64,000 nt of DNA from a virus, in IMG/VR virus record IMGVR_UViG_3300025405_000009, positions 134,848-198,847 of that record. One strand, 5' to 3'. Below, piece after piece: positions 7,744 to 34,308 of the stretch. A model generated the notes under the pieces. It was not told the origin of the DNA. It was given only the letters and a program-made list of their open reading frames with translations, and did no database searches. The first letter of the stretch is position 1, and each line of letters starts with the position of its first letter. The translations under genes were made by a program, and so were the position numbers.

Positions 7744-8106
7744 ATGGCTTCTACACGTTTAAGCGCAGCTCGCGATATAGCACATGGTAAATTTCCAGCA
7801 ACAGGAGTGAAACGATCTCCTAAATGGGCTGCTGTACGCAAGGAACATCTTAAGAATAATCCAAAATGTGCAATTTGTGAAGGTACAGAAAAACTTAATG
7901 TACATCATATTAAACCATTTCATTTACATCCGGAATTAGAACTCGATCCAAGTAACTTTATTACTCTTTGTGAAAGTGCAAGTTATGGTATTATCTGTCA
8001 TATTCTTGTTGGTCATTTAGGTGATTATAAAAACATAAATCCAAATTCTGTAGAAGATGCTAAAATTTGGAACGCTAAATTAAAAGAAGATCATTTTCAG
8101 AAATAG
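7744..8106 (+). CDS. Small HNH endonuclease in the tRNA cluster
   Basis: CAIC...LNVHHIKP...NFITLC...CH. Confidence 0.8.
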   Translation: MASTRLSAARDIAHGKFPATGVKRSPKWAAVRKEHLKNNPKCAICEGTEKLNVHHIKPFHLHPELELDPSNFITLCESASYGIICHILVGHLGDYKNINPNSVEDAKIWNAKLKEDHFQK

Positions 8107-12299: not shown

Positions 12300-12350
12300 C
12301 GGATAAAGGTTTATTGCACACATAAATAATAACGGATGCAATAAACCACT

Positions 12351-12863
12351 ATGAAATCTAAACTAGAACCTTTTAAAGAAGATGTAATAAAAATGTATGT
12401 TGATGAAAAATTAACATGCAAACAAATAGGATTAAAATTTAAAATAAGACCAGGGCCTGTTTCAAGTTTTCTTATTAAAAATAATGTAAAGCTACGTAAT
12501 GCTGGTCAACAGAAAGGTAGACCCGGTACGAATAAAGGAAAGAAATTTGTAGAACGTACATTGGCATACAATACACAACTTATTGAAAGCGGTGAATATA
12601 AAAAACTTCACGAAGCAGGTATAAGGAGCCGTATACGTAAATATCTAATTAACAAATATGGACATAAATGTCAAATATGTGGTCTGTCTGAATGGAGAGG
12701 ACATGCTATACCTCTTGTATGCGATCACATAGACGGATCTGCTAAAAATTGTGAATTAGAGAATTTTAGAGTGATTTGTAATAATTGCGACTCTATACTA
12801 CCTACATATAAAGGTAAAAATAGAGGCAGAGGTAGAAAACTTAACGGGAGCGTGACTGAGTGA
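12351..12863 (+). mobile_element. Free-standing HNH homing endonuclease overlapping tRNA-Ser(ACT)
   Basis: KCQICG...LVCDHIDG...NFRVICNNCDS; last 18 nt lie inside the tRNA. Confidence 0.82.
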
Positions 12864-12936
12864 TTTAAAGTGATCGATTACTAATCGATTGAACCCTAAT
12901 AAGGTTCCGTGGGTTTGAATCCCACCGCTCCTTCCA
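12846..12936 (+). tRNA. tRNA-Ser(ACT), rare anticodon
   Basis: GGGAGCG/CGCTCCT, ATCGA-TTACTAA-TCGAT, variable arm GAACC/GGTTC, A19 with U56, U73, CCA. Confidence 0.8.
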
Positions 12937-12981
12937 TTTTTTTTCTTGACTTAATACTTAAATACTCTAATATAAATGAAT

Positions 12982-13072
12982 GGACAGGTGGCAGAGTTGG
13001 TCTATTGCATCTGACTTGAAATCAGAAGTACCCGAAAGGGTACCGTGGGTTCGAATCCTACCCTGTCCGCCA
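12982..13072 (+). tRNA. tRNA-Ser(TGA)
   Basis: GGACAGG/CCTGTCC, loop CTTGAAA, long variable arm, G73, CCA. Confidence 0.95.
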
Positions 13073-13080
13073 ATTTTAAC

Positions 13081-13158
13081 GCGTAGATGGCTGAGTGGTC
13101 AAAGGCAATCCTCTGCAAAAGGATAAAATCGCCAGTTCAAATCTGGCTCTACGCTCCA
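13081..13158 (+). tRNA. tRNA-Cys(GCA)
   Basis: GCGTAGA/TCTACGC, ATCCT-CTGCAAA-AGGAT, U73, CCA. Confidence 0.93.
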
Positions 13159-13169
13159 TAAATACTATT

Positions 13170-13343
13170 ATGACATTTAAAGAATACGTGACAGAAAAGA
13201 ATATAGATAAACCACGTCATCCCGGTATTCTCAAACGCCAGGTTAAGGGCAAATTAACCTGTTCAAAGGCTCGTAAATTAGAAGGTAAGGGCGGTCTAAC
13301 CGCTAAAGCAGCTCGTCGCTATCAAAATTATCACTGCCAATAA
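13170..13343 (+). CDS. Small basic protein with capsid-targeting-like N-terminus (MTFKEYVTE)
   Basis: Start moved to ATG 13170 because the track start lies inside tRNA-Cys; CATAAATA at 13157-13164. Confidence 0.7.
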   Translation: MTFKEYVTEKNIDKPRHPGILKRQVKGKLTCSKARKLEGKGGLTAKAARRYQNYHCQ

Positions 13344-17607: not shown

Positions 17608-18189
17608 ATGACTAACTTAAACTGCGCATCCGTTCTTATTTTAAACCGAAATTGGCAAGCAATTCATGTAAAATCAGCGGCAGAGGCTCTTTCTATGATG
17701 TATGTAGGTAACGCTACAGGCTTAGATATCGCCGGCTTTGATAATATGGTACCATACAAGTGGGAGAATTGGGTCTCTCTACCTTTTGATGAAAAGGCTG
17801 AATATGTCAGCACCATACGTGGTCAAATAAAGGTCCCCAAGGTTATTGTGTTATGTGAATATGATAAAGTTCCAAAGAGAAGACCGAAATTTTCATCTAA
17901 AGCTATTTGGAATAGAGATGAAGGTACCTGTCAATATACTGGTAAGAAGCTAACACCGAATGAAGCAAATATCGATCATGTTTTACCAAGAAGTAAGGGA
18001 GGTAGGACAACATGGACAAATTGTGTTCTCTCCCACAAAGAAGTAAATCATAAGAAAGGTAATAGAACACCTGAAGAAGCTGGACTCAAACTCATCCGTC
18101 AACCATATGAGCCTAGAGCAGTTCCAACAATGCTTTATATTAACAATCACCAGAATATTCCTGAATGGGATATCTTTTTAAAGCTATGA
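17608..18189 (+). CDS. HNH endonuclease (McrA-like)
   Basis: VLILNRNW N-terminus; RD...CQYTG...IDHVLPRSKGG..TWTNCV. Confidence 0.85.
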   Translation: MTNLNCASVLILNRNWQAIHVKSAAEALSMMYVGNATGLDIAGFDNMVPYKWENWVSLPFDEKAEYVSTIRGQIKVPKVIVLCEYDKVPKRRPKFSSKAIWNRDEGTCQYTGKKLTPNEANIDHVLPRSKGGRTTWTNCVLSHKEVNHKKGNRTPEEAGLKLIRQPYEPRAVPTMLYINNHQNIPEWDIFLKL

Positions 18190-19100: not shown

Positions 19101-22100
19101 GTGGAACAGGATCCGTTAATAAACTTTCTATCTAATCTTTCCCAAAAGATTAATGTAGAGAAAGAGCACAAGGCCATTATGGAAGGACTTGAGGCTCCGG
19201 AAACTGTTACTCCTCTTGCTGTTACCTTAGCTAATTTACAAGAAAAAATTGCTAAACAAGTTCAGGCTCACCTTCCTTCTACTGAAGCTACTGTAGAACA
19301 ACCAGTAATAGCTATAGAAGAGTCTGAAGAGATTTTAGAAGATAAAGACAATTTTGGTGATTTTTTAGGTAAATTAAAGGATATATTGGCAAACCCAAAA
19401 GATCCTACTGTCCCTGAAGTTAAAGTACCGATTGTAGAAGAGATTGAAGAAGAAATACCGGTAGAAGTACCAAAAGCTCCTATTGTTACTGCTACACCAA
19501 AGAACGATTATATTCAGGAACTGGAGAGACAATCTAAACCGCCTGCTGCTAAAAAAACAGCTAATGATTATACATTAGAACTTGATAAACTTAGTACTGA
19601 TATTATTAGCGAAACCGAACCTGTTAAAATGGAGAGTATTAAGAAACTTCTTGAGGAGTACATGGAGAAGTATCTTAAGAAGGCTGCTGTCATGGCTGAG
19701 TACGCAGGAGGTGGAGGCTCAGTAGCTCAACAATTTGCTAATGGCGGTACAATGAACGGTACCTTAAACGTCACTGGTCAATACCTCTCCGGTGGTGTAG
19801 ATATTGCTACATTGTTCTCAACAGGGAGCGGTAGCGGTGGAAGCGGAAATGCAGCTGTTAATAGTGTAGTCATTTCAAGTTCTGCTAACTGGAATAATAC
19901 CTATACAACCGTACAAGGCAATAGCGCTAGTTGGGGTGCAGGTGGTACACCGCAAACTCTTTCCTTCAACTCTAATACCGCGGCTTTATCTATTAGTAAT
20001 GGTAACACAGTTAGTCTCTCGGCTTTAAGTGCAACAAGTACATCTGCCAATCTCGGTCAAATACCTACATTAAGTGCTAACTGGAATAGTAGTTATACAA
20101 CTTTAACAGCAAATAGTGCTAGCTGGAATAGTGTATATAGCTATGTAAATTCAACTTCTGCTACAAATAATCCAGGCTATAATGCAACAACATTTAGTAA
20201 GTTATCTAGTCAAGCCTTTACGTATATCCCGTCTACATCGTCTGTCAATACAGTAATTGGTAATAATATTTTATCCGGATATGGTATTGTTACACCTAAT
20301 CAAAATCACCCTAACTATGGATATATTTGTAATTCGTCTATTTTAGGGGGATGTAATAATGCTCTTTATGCCGTTGGTACCGACGCTAACGATAGTGGAT
20401 GTAGTGATGGAGCCGGGACATCTTGTATTACAAATTCTATAATTTTAGGTGGTGTACAAAATCAAATTTGTAATACAGCATCTGGCTATTATAGTAGTGT
20501 TGCTTTTGGTAATAGTTATTCCAACGTTTATAATTCTGTTATTTTAACCGGTAATCAAAATTTAATACGAGCTACTAATTGTGGTTTACCTAATTCTTGT
20601 ACAGGTAGCGCTACAATTTTAGGAGGTAGTAATAATACTATATCTAGTAGTTATGGCCGTGCATCTTGTAGTACAATTACTAATGGTGTTTCAGGGTATA
20701 TTGGAGCAGCTTTATCGTTTATTGGTAATGGTTCATGTAATACTGTTAATAGTGGTTTAACATTTATTGGTACAGGTTGTAATAATACTATTAACGGTGG
20801 TGGTACTTCTGCTTTATTAAATGGTATTTGTAACTCAATAACTGGTGCTGGTTTATTAATTGGTAATGGTTGTGGTAATAATTTACAGGCAAATTATAGT
20901 ACTATTTTAAATGGAACGTGTAATGTAAATTTTTGTAATTTCTCTAATGTATTAAATGGTTCACTAAATTGTGCAACTGCATTGAGTGTAGCAATTAATA
21001 ACGGATTTTGTAATACTGCCAGTAGTCAATATTCTACTATTGTTAATGGTAAACAAAATACAGCTACATATGGCTTAGGTCCATACCCTAGAATATTATT
21101 ACATTTTGATTCATTTATCGGAATTGCTGATTCTTCAATATATGGGCTTACAGTCACTAATCCGAGTAATTTAACAGTAGGTGTATCAGGTAAATTTAAT
21201 AATGGAATTTATTTTCCAGGATCAGCTTTCCTAGCTATTAATACAAACTCCCCAATAGGAACTGGTAATTTTTCAGTCGACTTATGGTTCAATAATAGTG
21301 GTAATAATACTGGATTTATACTTGGAAACTATACTACTGGTAGTGCTGGAAATCCTCGTATATACGTAAATAACGGAAATATAAGTTATCGCACAACATC
21401 TACTGGTAGTGATCTAATAATATCTAGCTTTACACCAAATGTTTGGAATCACGTTGCTTTAAGTCGAGTTAGTGGTACTACAACACTCTATTTAAATGGT
21501 GTTAGTGTTGGTACATATGCTGACAGTGCTAATTACAGTAATAACTGGAATTTTAGATTAGGTATAGGTAATTCTGGTGGAGGTAGTTTTTATACAGGCT
21601 ATATTGATGAGGTAAGAGTGTTTAACGGTTATTCTCCTTATTCAGGTAATTTTACTCCTCCTACAGCTCCCTATTCGTTAGGTTCATCGAGTGTTCTCGG
21701 TGGTGTGTATAATAGCGTATATGGAGATAATTCTTCTATTATCGGTGGCACTAATAATACATTAAGTGCTAATAATTCATTTATCTTAGGATCTAATATT
21801 TTTGTTAGTGCTGTTAATAACTTTACATTTGTTAACAATATCTCTTCACAGGGATTAGTTTATGATGGTACAGGTAATAGTAGTCAATGGAATAGTACAT
21901 TTACAACGGTATCAGCTAATAGTGCTAATTGGAATACTGCTTATACATTAGCTACTGGATTAACCTCTCTAAGTAGTAATTGGCAATCAACCTATACAAC
22001 TGTTAGTTCAAATAGTGCTAATTGGAATACTTCTTATACCCTGGTTCAAAATAATTCTGCAGGATGGAATAATCCATTAAGCGCTTACTCTTTTATTACC

Positions 22101-22634
22101 AATGGCAGTACATCTATTTTTAATCTTAGCACAACAGCGCCATTCACGAATGCTGCAGCGTATATTGTATCTCTAAATGGAGCTATTCAAACTCCTACTA
22201 CAGACTTTACAATAACATATAGTGGAACGAATTATCTTAACCTTAATTTTACCCCTAGAGCTGGAGCTTTAATCGATGTCCAGGTTCTTGGTAATGGTGT
22301 TATAACAAACAGTAGTGTAGTAACGGTTAGTTCGAGTACCTATAACCCGTTATATGCTTACGTAAATAGTAATTTCTCTGTCAATGTACCAACTGGTAAT
22401 TATATGGTAGATACTACAACTTCTGGAGTTACTGGCGTATTACCTACAACACCGACCATTGGAACAGTAATTGGATTTATGGACCCCTATTATACCTGGG
22501 CTACTAATAATTTTACTCTATCTGCTTCTACTAACATAGAGAATCAAAATCAAACAGTTGCTATGAATATTGCAGGTTTTTCTCTAAAAGCTATCTATGT
22601 TGGTGGTACATACGGATGGAGGCTTGTACAATAA
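19101..22634 (+). CDS. Large fibre/structural protein: acidic N-domain, W-x3-Y stalk repeats, GG-x2-N beta-roll, LamG/ConA domain
   Basis: GGGGS hinge; SANWN..YTTV repeats; W.HVAL.R..GT..LYLNG and GYIDEVR LamG motifs. Confidence 0.75.
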   Translation: MEQDPLINFLSNLSQKINVEKEHKAIMEGLEAPETVTPLAVTLANLQEKIAKQVQAHLPSTEATVEQPVIAIEESEEILEDKDNFGDFLGKLKDILANPKDPTVPEVKVPIVEEIEEEIPVEVPKAPIVTATPKNDYIQELERQSKPPAAKKTANDYTLELDKLSTDIISETEPVKMESIKKLLEEYMEKYLKKAAVMAEYAGGGGSVAQQFANGGTMNGTLNVTGQYLSGGVDIATLFSTGSGSGGSGNAAVNSVVISSSANWNNTYTTVQGNSASWGAGGTPQTLSFNSNTAALSISNGNTVSLSALSATSTSANLGQIPTLSANWNSSYTTLTANSASWNSVYSYVNSTSATNNPGYNATTFSKLSSQAFTYIPSTSSVNTVIGNNILSGYGIVTPNQNHPNYGYICNSSILGGCNNALYAVGTDANDSGCSDGAGTSCITNSIILGGVQNQICNTASGYYSSVAFGNSYSNVYNSVILTGNQNLIRATNCGLPNSCTGSATILGGSNNTISSSYGRASCSTITNGVSGYIGAALSFIGNGSCNTVNSGLTFIGTGCNNTINGGGTSALLNGICNSITGAGLLIGNGCGNNLQANYSTILNGTCNVNFCNFSNVLNGSLNCATALSVAINNGFCNTASSQYSTIVNGKQNTATYGLGPYPRILLHFDSFIGIADSSIYGLTVTNPSNLTVGVSGKFNNGIYFPGSAFLAINTNSPIGTGNFSVDLWFNNSGNNTGFILGNYTTGSAGNPRIYVNNGNISYRTTSTGSDLIISSFTPNVWNHVALSRVSGTTTLYLNGVSVGTYADSANYSNNWNFRLGIGNSGGGSFYTGYIDEVRVFNGYSPYSGNFTPPTAPYSLGSSSVLGGVYNSVYGDNSSIIGGTNNTLSANNSFILGSNIFVSAVNNFTFVNNISSQGLVYDGTGNSSQWNSTFTTVSANSANWNTAYTLATGLTSLSSNWQSTYTTVSSNSANWNTSYTLVQNNSAGWNNPLSAYSFITNGSTSIFNLSTTAPFTNAAAYIVSLNGAIQTPTTDFTITYSGTNYLNLNFTPRAGALIDVQVLGNGVITNSSVVTVSSSTYNPLYAYVNSNFSVNVPTGNYMVDTTTSGVTGVLPTTPTIGTVIGFMDPYYTWATNNFTLSASTNIENQNQTVAMNIAGFSLKAIYVGGTYGWRLVQ

Positions 22635-22653
22635 CGAATAAATAAACACGACG

Positions 22654-24351
22654 ATGATCTACTTAACCTCATTATTAAATCCGACTAGTAGTTACGTACT
22701 ACCACAGCCCCTTTCGGTTACTACAACAAACCCTGTAACCTCATTAAGTGCTACGATAACAAATGCTGTTTCAACAATACCATCTGGTATTCAGTTAGTA
22801 AGTAACGCACCAGGTTATCAGCTTGATCAAACCGGTCGTGCAAGAACTGCTATACTCGGTCAACAATGGTGGTATAATTCAACAACTGATAAGGATGGAG
22901 ATTATCGAATGATTGAATCCTTTACGTCGACGGCAACTAGTATCTATGTTCAGAATTATGCTAGTACATTGATGACATCAGGGACGGCAAATGGAGCTAC
23001 AGCAATTAGAACAAGTCGTCGTAGACATAAACTACGTCCCGGTGTAGGTATGCAGTATTTTGGTACCTGGTGCTGGGATGGTTATGATACAAATGTTGTA
23101 AAGCGTAAGGGTTGGTTTACTGGCTTTAATGGTTTCTTCTTTGAATTATCAGGCGGGGACATGAACGCGGTTGTTCGTATGAGATTAATGGATGGATCTC
23201 TACTGGAAACAAGAGTACCAAGAAGTCAATTTAATGGTGATAAAATAGATGGTAATGGACCGAGTGGAGAGAACTGGAATTTACCTGCCTTATCTGCTTA
23301 TACTACTAATACAATAACTCCAACAGTTACTGCTGTTTCCGTTGGTAGTACTACAGTTTGGAATGTACGATATAGTGTAACAAATGCTGCTCAGGCTAGT
23401 GCCTTCCCTATTGGTTCTAAAGTTACTGTAAATGGATTTACTCCGTTTACGCTTAACGGACCTGCTATTGTTCAGTCCTATAATACGGCTACTCCTTCTA
23501 TTACTCTAACCTACCCATTAAGTGTTGGTAATTATAGTTCAGGGGCTAGTACTGGAAATATAATACAAACTGCCTTCCACGGAACCCATACCTATTGGTT
23601 AGATATTATTGGTAATAGAACTAATCAAGTTCGTTTCGGTAAGGTAACCGATAAGGGTGAAGTCATTCTACATACAATGGCCTTTGACGGTCAATTTGGT
23701 TCTCCTTATGCTAATGCTCCAGCAATGCCAGTTAGAAAAGAAATTTATAATACAGGAACTGTTAATTATAACCCAACAATATCTATGTTCGGTTGTTCTA
23801 TTAACGTTGAAGCAAATGTTGAGCTTAATCCTTATTTTTCTTCCGTATATAATAATACAATAATTAACTGTAATTTAAACCAAGAAGTAGTTATTCTAGG
23901 AGTCGGTCAGAGATTTGGTGAACCATGGCAGAGAGGAGACATTCAGGTTCAGAGTATTGGTATTCAAGATACTGCTAATGGACCAGGCAAAAATTCGAGT
24001 CAATCACTCATCTTTTGGCGGCTCTTATTAAACCCAGGATTAAGTGGATTACCAACTCCTGTTAATACAGGTAAGTCAATTCAGTATTGGCCCTGTACTT
24101 CAACAACTGGACTAACAGGTAGTCAACCTAGTGGCTATGCTAATATGGGTGGAGGTTGGGAGTTATTAACAGGATATGCATCATCAGGTGATACAATTAA
24201 CGTTAATACTCAGTTAAACTTCCTTAACCTCGGATCTAATATTCAATATACAGATGCTGACAAGATTTTCTTAACAGCTAAAATAATAGCAGCAGGTGGT
24301 GCAACTCCAGCAACTCTAGTTGGTAACATGAATGTCATTGAATCACTATAA
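22654..24351 (+). CDS. Virion structural protein, paralogous domain to 50089..53022
   Basis: NGFFFE and DKIDGNGPSG motifs; AATAAATA late box at 22637-22644. Confidence 0.65.
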   Translation: MIYLTSLLNPTSSYVLPQPLSVTTTNPVTSLSATITNAVSTIPSGIQLVSNAPGYQLDQTGRARTAILGQQWWYNSTTDKDGDYRMIESFTSTATSIYVQNYASTLMTSGTANGATAIRTSRRRHKLRPGVGMQYFGTWCWDGYDTNVVKRKGWFTGFNGFFFELSGGDMNAVVRMRLMDGSLLETRVPRSQFNGDKIDGNGPSGENWNLPALSAYTTNTITPTVTAVSVGSTTVWNVRYSVTNAAQASAFPIGSKVTVNGFTPFTLNGPAIVQSYNTATPSITLTYPLSVGNYSSGASTGNIIQTAFHGTHTYWLDIIGNRTNQVRFGKVTDKGEVILHTMAFDGQFGSPYANAPAMPVRKEIYNTGTVNYNPTISMFGCSINVEANVELNPYFSSVYNNTIINCNLNQEVVILGVGQRFGEPWQRGDIQVQSIGIQDTANGPGKNSSQSLIFWRLLLNPGLSGLPTPVNTGKSIQYWPCTSTTGLTGSQPSGYANMGGGWELLTGYASSGDTINVNTQLNFLNLGSNIQYTDADKIFLTAKIIAAGGATPATLVGNMNVIESL

Positions 24352-33740: not shown

Positions 33741-33833
33741 CCGCCTATAGTTTAATGGTAGAACCCTTGTTTTATACACAAGAAGCTGGGAGACTCTGGC
33801 GCAGTGCAGGTTCGAATCCTGCTAGGCGGACCA
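33741..33833 (+). tRNA. tRNA with UAU anticodon (Ile-type) and long variable arm
   Basis: CCGCCTA/TAGGCGG, CTTGT-TTTATAC-ACAAG, 23-nt variable region, GCAGG-TTCGAAT-CCTGC, A73, CCA. Confidence 0.88.
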
Positions 33834-34232: not shown

Positions 34233-34308
34233 GCTCCAGTAGTCCAACGGCAGAGACAAGGGACTTAAAATCCCTCAAGTATCGGTTCGAATCCGATCTG
34301 GAGTACCA
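34233..34308 (+). tRNA. tRNA-Leu(TAA) with short variable loop
   Basis: GCTCCAG/CTGGAGT, AGGGA-CTTAAAA-TCCCT, variable loop CAAGT, CCA. Confidence 0.9.

Follow-up and report, generated by a model that had tools for sequence, protein, structure and literature searches.

An HNH endonuclease gene that ends in the D-loop of a phage tRNA-Ser(ACU) gene with an A19–U56 elbow pair

INTRODUCTION

The closest described system to the locus reported here is segB of bacteriophage T4 (PMC2330249), a free-standing homing endonuclease gene of the GIY-YIG type that lies in the T4 tRNA cluster, is present in some relatives and absent from others, and has the tRNA genes as its landing zone. The motif recognised by the SegB protein, GGTTCRANTCC, is that of the T-loop in tRNA genes (PMC2330249). 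An arrangement in which phage tRNA genes accommodate a homing endonuclease gene is already known, and the gene described here likewise stands free among phage tRNA genes and is present or absent between relatives. It differs in encoding a predicted endonuclease of the HNH type and, unlike segB, in having an open reading frame that overlaps the downstream tRNA gene and ends at a stop codon supplied by the D-loop of that tRNA.

The tRNA concerned is a serine tRNA with the anticodon ACU. Natural tRNAs with ANN anticodons have been termed extremely rare, and strong selection against them has been inferred, above all in two-codon boxes (bioRxiv 10.64898/2026.05.15.725136). In the same work, overexpression of an engineered E. 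coli Ser-tRNA(ACU) gave better growth in at least two media, and several other engineered A34 tRNAs were translationally active (bioRxiv 10.64898/2026.05.15.725136). A literature search for a natural tRNA-Ser(ACU) found no description of one.

METHODS

The window, by which we mean the whole stretch of DNA analysed, comprises the final 64 kb of an IMG/VR virus record of 198.8 kb (IMGVR_UViG_3300025405_000009), and coordinates given without a locus handle are positions in it; related loci are denoted by L numbers. Genes for tRNAs were called with ARAGORN and Rfam, and proteins were compared with PHROGs and Pfam. IMG/VR was scanned with a pattern combining the anticodon loop, the long arm and the T-loop, followed by confirmation with ARAGORN, and the same pattern was applied to species-representative genomes. 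Relatives were collected by way of the HNH protein and by pattern scans. Covariation was assessed in an alignment (A2) of twelve members of the U73 group, the pairs counted being those of the cloverleaf together with the 19–56 tertiary pair. Counts in the case-control comparison of tRNAs with GTGGG/CCCAC T-arms were clustered by lineage. A test for A19 that looks for the absence of GG in nucleotides 13–24 is unreliable for short D-loops, in which it catches the GGs of the D-stem; in the CGGG/CCCG replicate A19 was judged by eye.

RESULTS

The phage and the locus

The record has a completeness of 91% (CheckV), and the window has a GC content of about 35%. The stretch was found again in at least 24 freshwater metagenome runs from 2017, and the sequencing runs listed for it include no RNA run. 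A blastn search with the region and the tRNA against 50,697 phage records yielded no close cultured phage; only other serine tRNAs matched, and those that were opened had the anticodon UGA or GCU. ARAGORN found 17 tRNA genes in the 198.8-kb genome, all 17 of them within the window. The features of the locus are as follows.

12351..12863, + strand: free-standing HNH homing-endonuclease gene, 170 aa (ORF; PHROGs)
12846..12936, + strand: tRNA-Ser(ACU), class II, 91 nt, with encoded CCA (ARAGORN; Rfam; stem covariation in 12 relatives)
12846..12863, + strand: 18-nt overlap, in which tRNA nucleotides 1–18 code for the last five HNH residues (G-S-V-T-E) and the stop (sequence; ORF)
12861..12863, + strand: HNH stop codon TGA, equal to D-loop U16-G18-A19, with A19 at 12863 (sequence; ARAGORN)
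12880..12882, + strand: anticodon ACT (A34-C35-U36), in the loop TTACTAA (ARAGORN)
12914..12920, + strand: T-loop TTTGAAT, with U56, the partner of A19, at 12916 (sequence; 19–56 covariation)
12933..12936, + strand: discriminator U73 (12933) followed by encoded CCA (12934–12936) (sequence; ARAGORN)
12946..12973, + strand: promoter-like pair TTGACT and TAATAT, 16 nt apart, following eight consecutive Ts in the interval that separates the serine tRNAs (consensus match only)
12982..13072, + strand: tRNA-Ser(UGA), the conserved tandem partner, G19/C56 and G73 (ARAGORN; Rfam)
13081..13158, + strand: tRNA-Cys(GCA), the next gene in the cluster (ARAGORN; Rfam)

The Ser(ACU)–Ser(UGA) tandem is conserved in L003, L009, L281 and L294.

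The tRNA-Ser(ACU)

ARAGORN and Rfam bore out the original prediction of a serine tRNA with the anticodon ACU, a U56 T-loop, an encoded CCA, and intact stems and variable arm. The Rfam tRNA model (RF00005) scored 50.6 bits, above its gathering score of 29. The cloverleaf drawn by ARAGORN has a 7-bp acceptor stem closed by G1–U72, a 3-bp D-stem, a 5-bp anticodon stem, a variable-arm stem of 4 bp, and a T-stem of 5 bp with the loop UUUGAAU. The long variable arm, a hallmark of class II serine tRNAs, is thus present, and its 4-bp stem is kept by compensatory changes in the 12 relatives. Across these relatives standard pairs filled 99.7% of the cells and 20 of the 25 pairs had changed on both sides, and when the 3' partner was slid by one to three columns as a control, pairing was 34–55%. 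The allele is retained at 90–93% identity on four contigs, among which the anticodon stem shows paired changes. Judged by this covariation, the tRNA is under structural selection and, as had been predicted, looks functional. Sequencing error at A34, A19 or U56 is excluded, the same letters having been re-assembled in contigs of other freshwater runs and the allele being found on three other viral contigs.

Most bacterial tRNA-Ser molecules have G1–C72. Here G1 (12846) forms a wobble pair with U72 (12932), as a G–U pair does at this position in 7 of the 12 aligned relatives, and G2–C71 is retained. The discriminator is U73 in place of G73, a base shared by 13 of the 128 Ser(ACU) genes among the matches listed. 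In E. coli the variable arm is the main determinant of serine identity and G73 has moderate weight (PMC9976931), and both G1–U72 and U73 deviate from that identity set (PMC9976931). The caution originally attached to U73 as regards charging stands in so far as the base is there, but is softened by its conservation in the clade of this tRNA and its presence in the neighbouring Ser(UGA) genes of L003, L281 and L294; we infer that the host SerRS charges the tRNA in spite of both deviations. PF00587, a core domain of class II synthetases such as SerRS, had no match in the phage genome, and no TadA was found in the phage, whose sole deaminase is a dCMP deaminase, so that charging and any editing of A34 to I34 would depend on the host.

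The serine tRNAs that the phage encodes are Ser(ACU) and Ser(UGA), and no Ser(GCU) is found among the 17 tRNAs, so Ser(ACU) is its only encoded reader of AGY codons. The two serine codons most used by the phage are AGT (23.9 per 1000) and TCA (23.8 per 1000), AGC standing at 5.9 per 1000, which gives an AGT:AGC ratio of 4:1, and the ORFs richest in AGT include several large proteins of the window. The suggestion that the tRNA serves AGT codons fits this heavy use.

Two other tRNA genes of the window have unusual shapes. The tRNA-Ile(UAU) at 33741–33833 (93 nt) has a long, stem-forming variable arm (ARAGORN) and hence a class II shape, the UAU isoleucine anticodon being normally found on a class I tRNA, and the gene called as tRNA-Leu(UAA) at 34233–34308 (76 nt) has a short variable region, bacterial leucine tRNAs being normally class II. 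Elsewhere, tRNA-Thr(UGU) genes of 87–90 nt with a long variable arm and A19/U56 were seen in L009 (2619–2708) and L539 (1039–1125), each adjoining an HNH gene.

The HNH gene

The predicted protein matches the HNH endonuclease families phrog_10822 (7.7e-20) and phrog_14736 (1.4e-16) of PHROGs; its Pfam matches were sub-threshold only (HNH_3, 11.8 bits against a cut-off of 24.8). An HNH core of the form CxxC...DH...N...N...CxxC lies at residues ~106–147, behind an N-terminal part that is helix-turn-helix-like, and the two CxxC pairs around the D-H...N...N core are conserved in homologues of 57–79% identity. The ortholog in L002 is 79% identical, with a dN/dS of ~0.06. On these comparisons the gene is intact and under selection. 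An 11-bp inverted repeat (GGTTTATTGCA ... TGCAATAAACC) occupies 12307–12346, in the gap that separates the start codon of the HNH gene from the gene upstream, and a scan for promoters and terminators upstream of the HNH gene gave weak consensus matches only.

The presence of the HNH gene at this site varies among relatives, L281 and L294 having none adjacent. A relative that co-occurs in the same lake samples (runs X19 and X23) and matches the upstream gene at about 89% identity has a different tRNA block of 1024 nt in place of 12303–13193. Judged by 30 letters of this variant, the block opens right after 12303 with a GG-type 5' end resembling that of a tRNA-Ser, so that no HNH gene lies at that site. 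Fragments of tRNA 3' ends were observed directly after HNH genes in L007 (3355–3382) and L009 (3357–3395), the L007 fragment being of 23 nt and matching without a difference the 3' end of the L057 Ser(ACU) gene. Such fragments look like scars of insertion and repair, and would fit repeated insertion and repair in tRNA clusters. The window holds two more HNH genes (Pfam HNH, HNH_4), one at 7744–8106 between a tRNA-Ala and a tRNA-Thr gene that are both G19/C56, the other at 17608–18189 beside the dCMP deaminase gene. On a metagenome contig, L440, the genes for Ser(UGA) and Ser(ACU), both of them A19/U56 with G73, are separated by a GIY-YIG gene (664–1589) that is Seg-like, has NUMOD3 motifs and ends 3 nt before Ser(ACU).

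As had been predicted, the HNH frame of the window runs 18 nt into the tRNA and stops at the TGA of 12861–12863, formed by U16-G18-A19. The further claim that with G19 the frame would read on holds as well, but it would soon end: U36-A37-A38 of the anticodon loop give a TAA, so that just 7 codons would be added. A homologue in L095 (57% identity) enters a G19/C56 Ser(ACU) gene in the same frame as in the window and does read through to the anticodon-loop TAA, and the HNH gene of L002 overlaps a G19/C56 tRNA by 24 nt and ends at a TAA in its D-loop. Altogether 21 endonuclease ORFs in the sampled loci end within the downstream tRNA, the commonest borrowed stop being the TAG of U8-A9-G10, with an overlap of 10 nt (7 of 21); the borrowing of a stop from the next tRNA by endonuclease ORFs is routine. 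L038 was considered as a further case of a D-loop stop and rejected, its HNH gene lying on the opposite strand and overlapping the 3' end of a tRNA-Gln.

The A19–U56 pair

Among the 128 Ser(ACU) matches listed, 126 combine GG with C56 and 2 combine GA with U56. A scan restricted to U56, the matches of which were listed in full, added three viral contigs with the allele (L003/L284, L281 and L294), all of which have A19. In alignment A2 the 19–56 pair is G–C in eight members and A–U in four. The association extends beyond serine tRNAs of this group: among tRNAs with the T-arm GTGGG/CCCAC, the D-loop lacks GG in 70 of 76 with U56 and in 0 of 94 with C56. L003, L281 and L294 supply an internal control, for their adjacent Ser(UGA) genes share a near-identical variable arm and T-arm and U73 and yet have C56 with GG. 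In L440, an independent phage, both serine tRNAs are A19/U56. The originally predicted change of the tertiary pair from G19–C56 to A19–U56 is, by this covariation across tRNAs, a true compensated pair, that is, a genuine isosteric Watson–Crick replacement of the elbow pair that recurs in phage tRNAs.

Distribution of tRNA-Ser(ACU)

The original prediction called this tRNA rare. We found at least 89 Ser(ACU) genes in viral contigs (IMG/VR scan, confirmed by ARAGORN) and at least 39 in species-representative genomes with the same pattern scan, and the description has to be dropped. Among the matches listed, the viral genes lie mostly within tRNA clusters, on contigs with a median GC content of 37.6%, and Ser(GCU) is co-carried at 1 of 85 Ser(ACU) loci; Patescibacteria (CPR) account for at least 15 of the 26 titled records among the cellular matches listed. 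Among AT-rich phages that are uncultured, and among CPR bacteria, this is a common tRNA.

DISCUSSION

We consider it fairly probable that the locus comprises a functional tRNA-Ser(ACU), the phage's only AGY reader, that an HNH gene with no stop codon of its own has lodged at the 5' edge of this tRNA, and that the A19–U56 pair most likely predates the HNH gene. A34 would be expected to pair by Watson–Crick geometry with AGU, one of the two serine codons most used by the phage. The free-standing HNH gene would have come to lie directly at the 5' edge of the tRNA, and, lacking a stop, would be translated into the tRNA as far as the first in-frame stop, which in the window allele is UGA. RNase P cleavage at the 5' end of the tRNA would remove the HNH stop codon, so that tRNA maturation and full translation of the HNH protein would be mutually exclusive for any one transcript. 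The overlap shows how tightly selfish endonuclease genes are packed in phage tRNA clusters, where they routinely end in the next tRNA, and from it one would expect endonuclease expression to be traded off against processing of the tRNA.

The order of events is indicated by the relatives. A19/U56 occurs without an adjacent HNH gene in L281 and L294, the former of which reads CGA, not TGA, and yet keeps A19–U56; in L003 it stands beside an HNH gene with a different N-terminal domain that stops 34 nt before the tRNA. In RNR alpha the window phage is nearest to the phage of L002 (87% identity), those of L294 (77%) and L281 (66–73%) being more distant, whereas the window tRNA is 90–93% identical to those of L003, L294 and L281 and 73% identical to that of L002. 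Since the nearest relatives by RNR and by tRNA differ, the simplest history is one of an old A19/U56 allele ahead of which the HNH gene arrived later. This order, which rests on parsimony and one marker gene, is the most likely, and the HNH gene most likely borrowed a stop that was already in place. L281 and L294 may once have carried the gene, for loss of homing genes is frequent, and its absence from them is not proof. A separate observation concerns the contig of L281 (G003), in which the RNR alpha match (20466–23225) falls in two parts ~1.1 kb apart within one open frame of 936 aa, which suggests an intein or other in-frame insertion.

The original prediction held that the tRNA is co-adapted to the endonuclease. 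The relatives just described speak against this, as does L002, where an ortholog of the HNH gene overlaps a G19/C56 tRNA and stops at TAA. As to the expected co-occurrence of A19/U56/ACU with the HNH gene, the allele occurs without the gene, although two independent pairs repeat the overlap. These pairs speak for a contrary order, in which the HNH gene first stood before a G19/C56 tRNA, G19A was selected for an early stop and C56U then restored the elbow pair: at the window Ser, L503 Cys and L539 Thr genes, three unrelated tRNAs that are all A19/U56, an HNH gene of phrog_10822/14736 ends in GAG-TGA after exactly 18 nt. U is also slightly in excess before G18-A19, UGA being found in 31 of 40 A19 tRNAs and UGG in 52 of 90 G19 tRNAs (p = 0.047, without lineage correction). 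L503 and L539 were, however, drawn from a sample selected for U56, and scans for relatives of their tRNAs returned just those two loci themselves. Moreover, in apparently intact genes (L002, L095, L029 and L648) frame-0 overlaps on G19 tRNAs run for 24–45 nt, and G19 would add just 7 codons in the window. With the allele present in L281 (as CGA) and L294 beside no HNH gene, and in L003 beside one with its own stop, we regard this contrary order as unlikely, and a causal link between the HNH gene and A19/U56 as possible.

The flip might instead have begun on the DNA side, C56→T altering a T-arm motif read by a homing endonuclease of the tRNA cluster and thereby conferring immunity, with G19A as compensation in the RNA. 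We examined the proximity of U56 tRNAs to endonuclease genes because SegB recognises a T-loop motif (PMC2330249), and that recognition, like the Seg-like gene of L440 lying between two A19/U56 serine tRNAs, is in keeping with such immunity. PHROGs confirmed 10 of the 10 endonuclease calls checked. In the case-control comparison of GTGGG/CCCAC T-arms an endonuclease gene lay within 500 nt in 12 of 24 U56 lineages and 7 of 55 C56 lineages (p = 0.001), and within loci a U56 tRNA was the one closest to the endonuclease gene 8 times, 4.3 being expected (p = 0.034). In the replicate on a second T-arm (CGGG/CCCG) 2 of 21 lineages had an endonuclease gene within 500 nt, the same as the baseline, and in the part of an earlier mixed sample that was unselected for U56 or HNH the counts within 150 nt were 2 of 8 for U56 and 40 of 433 for C56 (p = 0.17). 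Against immunity stand also the second HNH gene of the window (7744–8106), which is flanked by C56 tRNAs, and the HNH genes of L002 and L095, which adjoin such tRNAs. We therefore judge an origin in immunity improbable for the window pair. The mixed sample as a whole (within 150 nt, 5 of 13 for U56 against 76 of 611, p = 0.018) was biased and has been set aside. A general association between U56 and endonuclease genes is not claimed, the case-control sample having been positive and the replicate negative; it is a lead, possibly specific to one T-arm or one HNH family.

Both of these alternatives are forms of a wider proposition, that flips from G19–C56 to A19–U56 in phage clusters are driven by homing endonucleases, either because T56 would shield the T-arm DNA or because A19 would give the ORF its stop, the other base then changing to keep the fold. 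We hold this to be unlikely. Were it true, the form in which A19 supplies the stop would have at least three independent examples, the window among them, and a conserved piece of tRNA architecture would have been shaped by conflict at the level of DNA, which the present data do not establish.

A different question is why the anticodon is ACU. Phage tRNAs can escape tRNA-targeting defences, and the original prediction offered evasion of nucleases aimed at Ser(GCU) beside the serving of AGT codons. If ACU were kept mainly to escape a host anticodon nuclease directed against tRNA-Ser(GCU), and not for codon supply, the near absence of Ser(GCU) from phages with Ser(ACU) (the 1 of 85 loci among the matches listed) would be in keeping with it, as would the evasion of such defences by phage tRNAs in general, an example being Septu, which cleaves tRNA-Tyr (PMC13096335). 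But ACU is also the anticodon of a resident tRNA in many CPR bacteria, and the association with AT-rich genomes and the 4:1 excess of AGT over AGC fit codon supply; we give evasion little credence as the main reason for the anticodon. That insertion of the HNH gene damaged the tRNA and left a copy that is decaying or no longer works, as its odd D-loop (no GG), G1–U72, U73 and an Rfam score below those of its neighbours (50.6 against 58–60 bits) might suggest, is very improbable, for all its stems are intact and maintained by compensatory changes, the 19–56 pair is compensated too, four contigs retain the allele with paired anticodon-stem changes, and it is the sole AGY tRNA of the phage.

We return to the reading of a functional tRNA-Ser(ACU) and to how it compares with known tRNAs. 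The Ser(ACU) genes of CPR bacteria and uncultured phages have the same anticodon loop, YUACUAA, and class II serine body as the window tRNA, and like it lie in tRNA clusters on AT-rich contigs; most of them have G73 and G19/C56, whereas the window tRNA belongs to a small U73 clade and, within that, to a four-contig A19/U56 subclade. The standard reader of AGY codons in bacteria and phages, tRNA-Ser(GCU), shares with it the class II body, the long variable arm, the 3-bp D-stem, G2–C71 and a tandem arrangement with Ser(UGA). The window tRNA differs from this standard in having A34 in place of G34 in a split codon box, G1–U72 and U73 in place of G1–C72 and G73, and A19–U56 in place of G19–C56. 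If a host TadA were to make I34, the tRNA would also read AGA (Arg). As an A34 tRNA that is natural and conserved and belongs to the split Ser/Arg box, it offers a test case for whether A34 is left unmodified and for how misreading of AGA is avoided. The engineered E. coli Ser-tRNA(ACU) is likewise a serine tRNA with G34 changed to A34 (bioRxiv 10.64898/2026.05.15.725136), but it is a laboratory point mutant on an E. coli backbone, whereas the gene of the window is natural and conserved.
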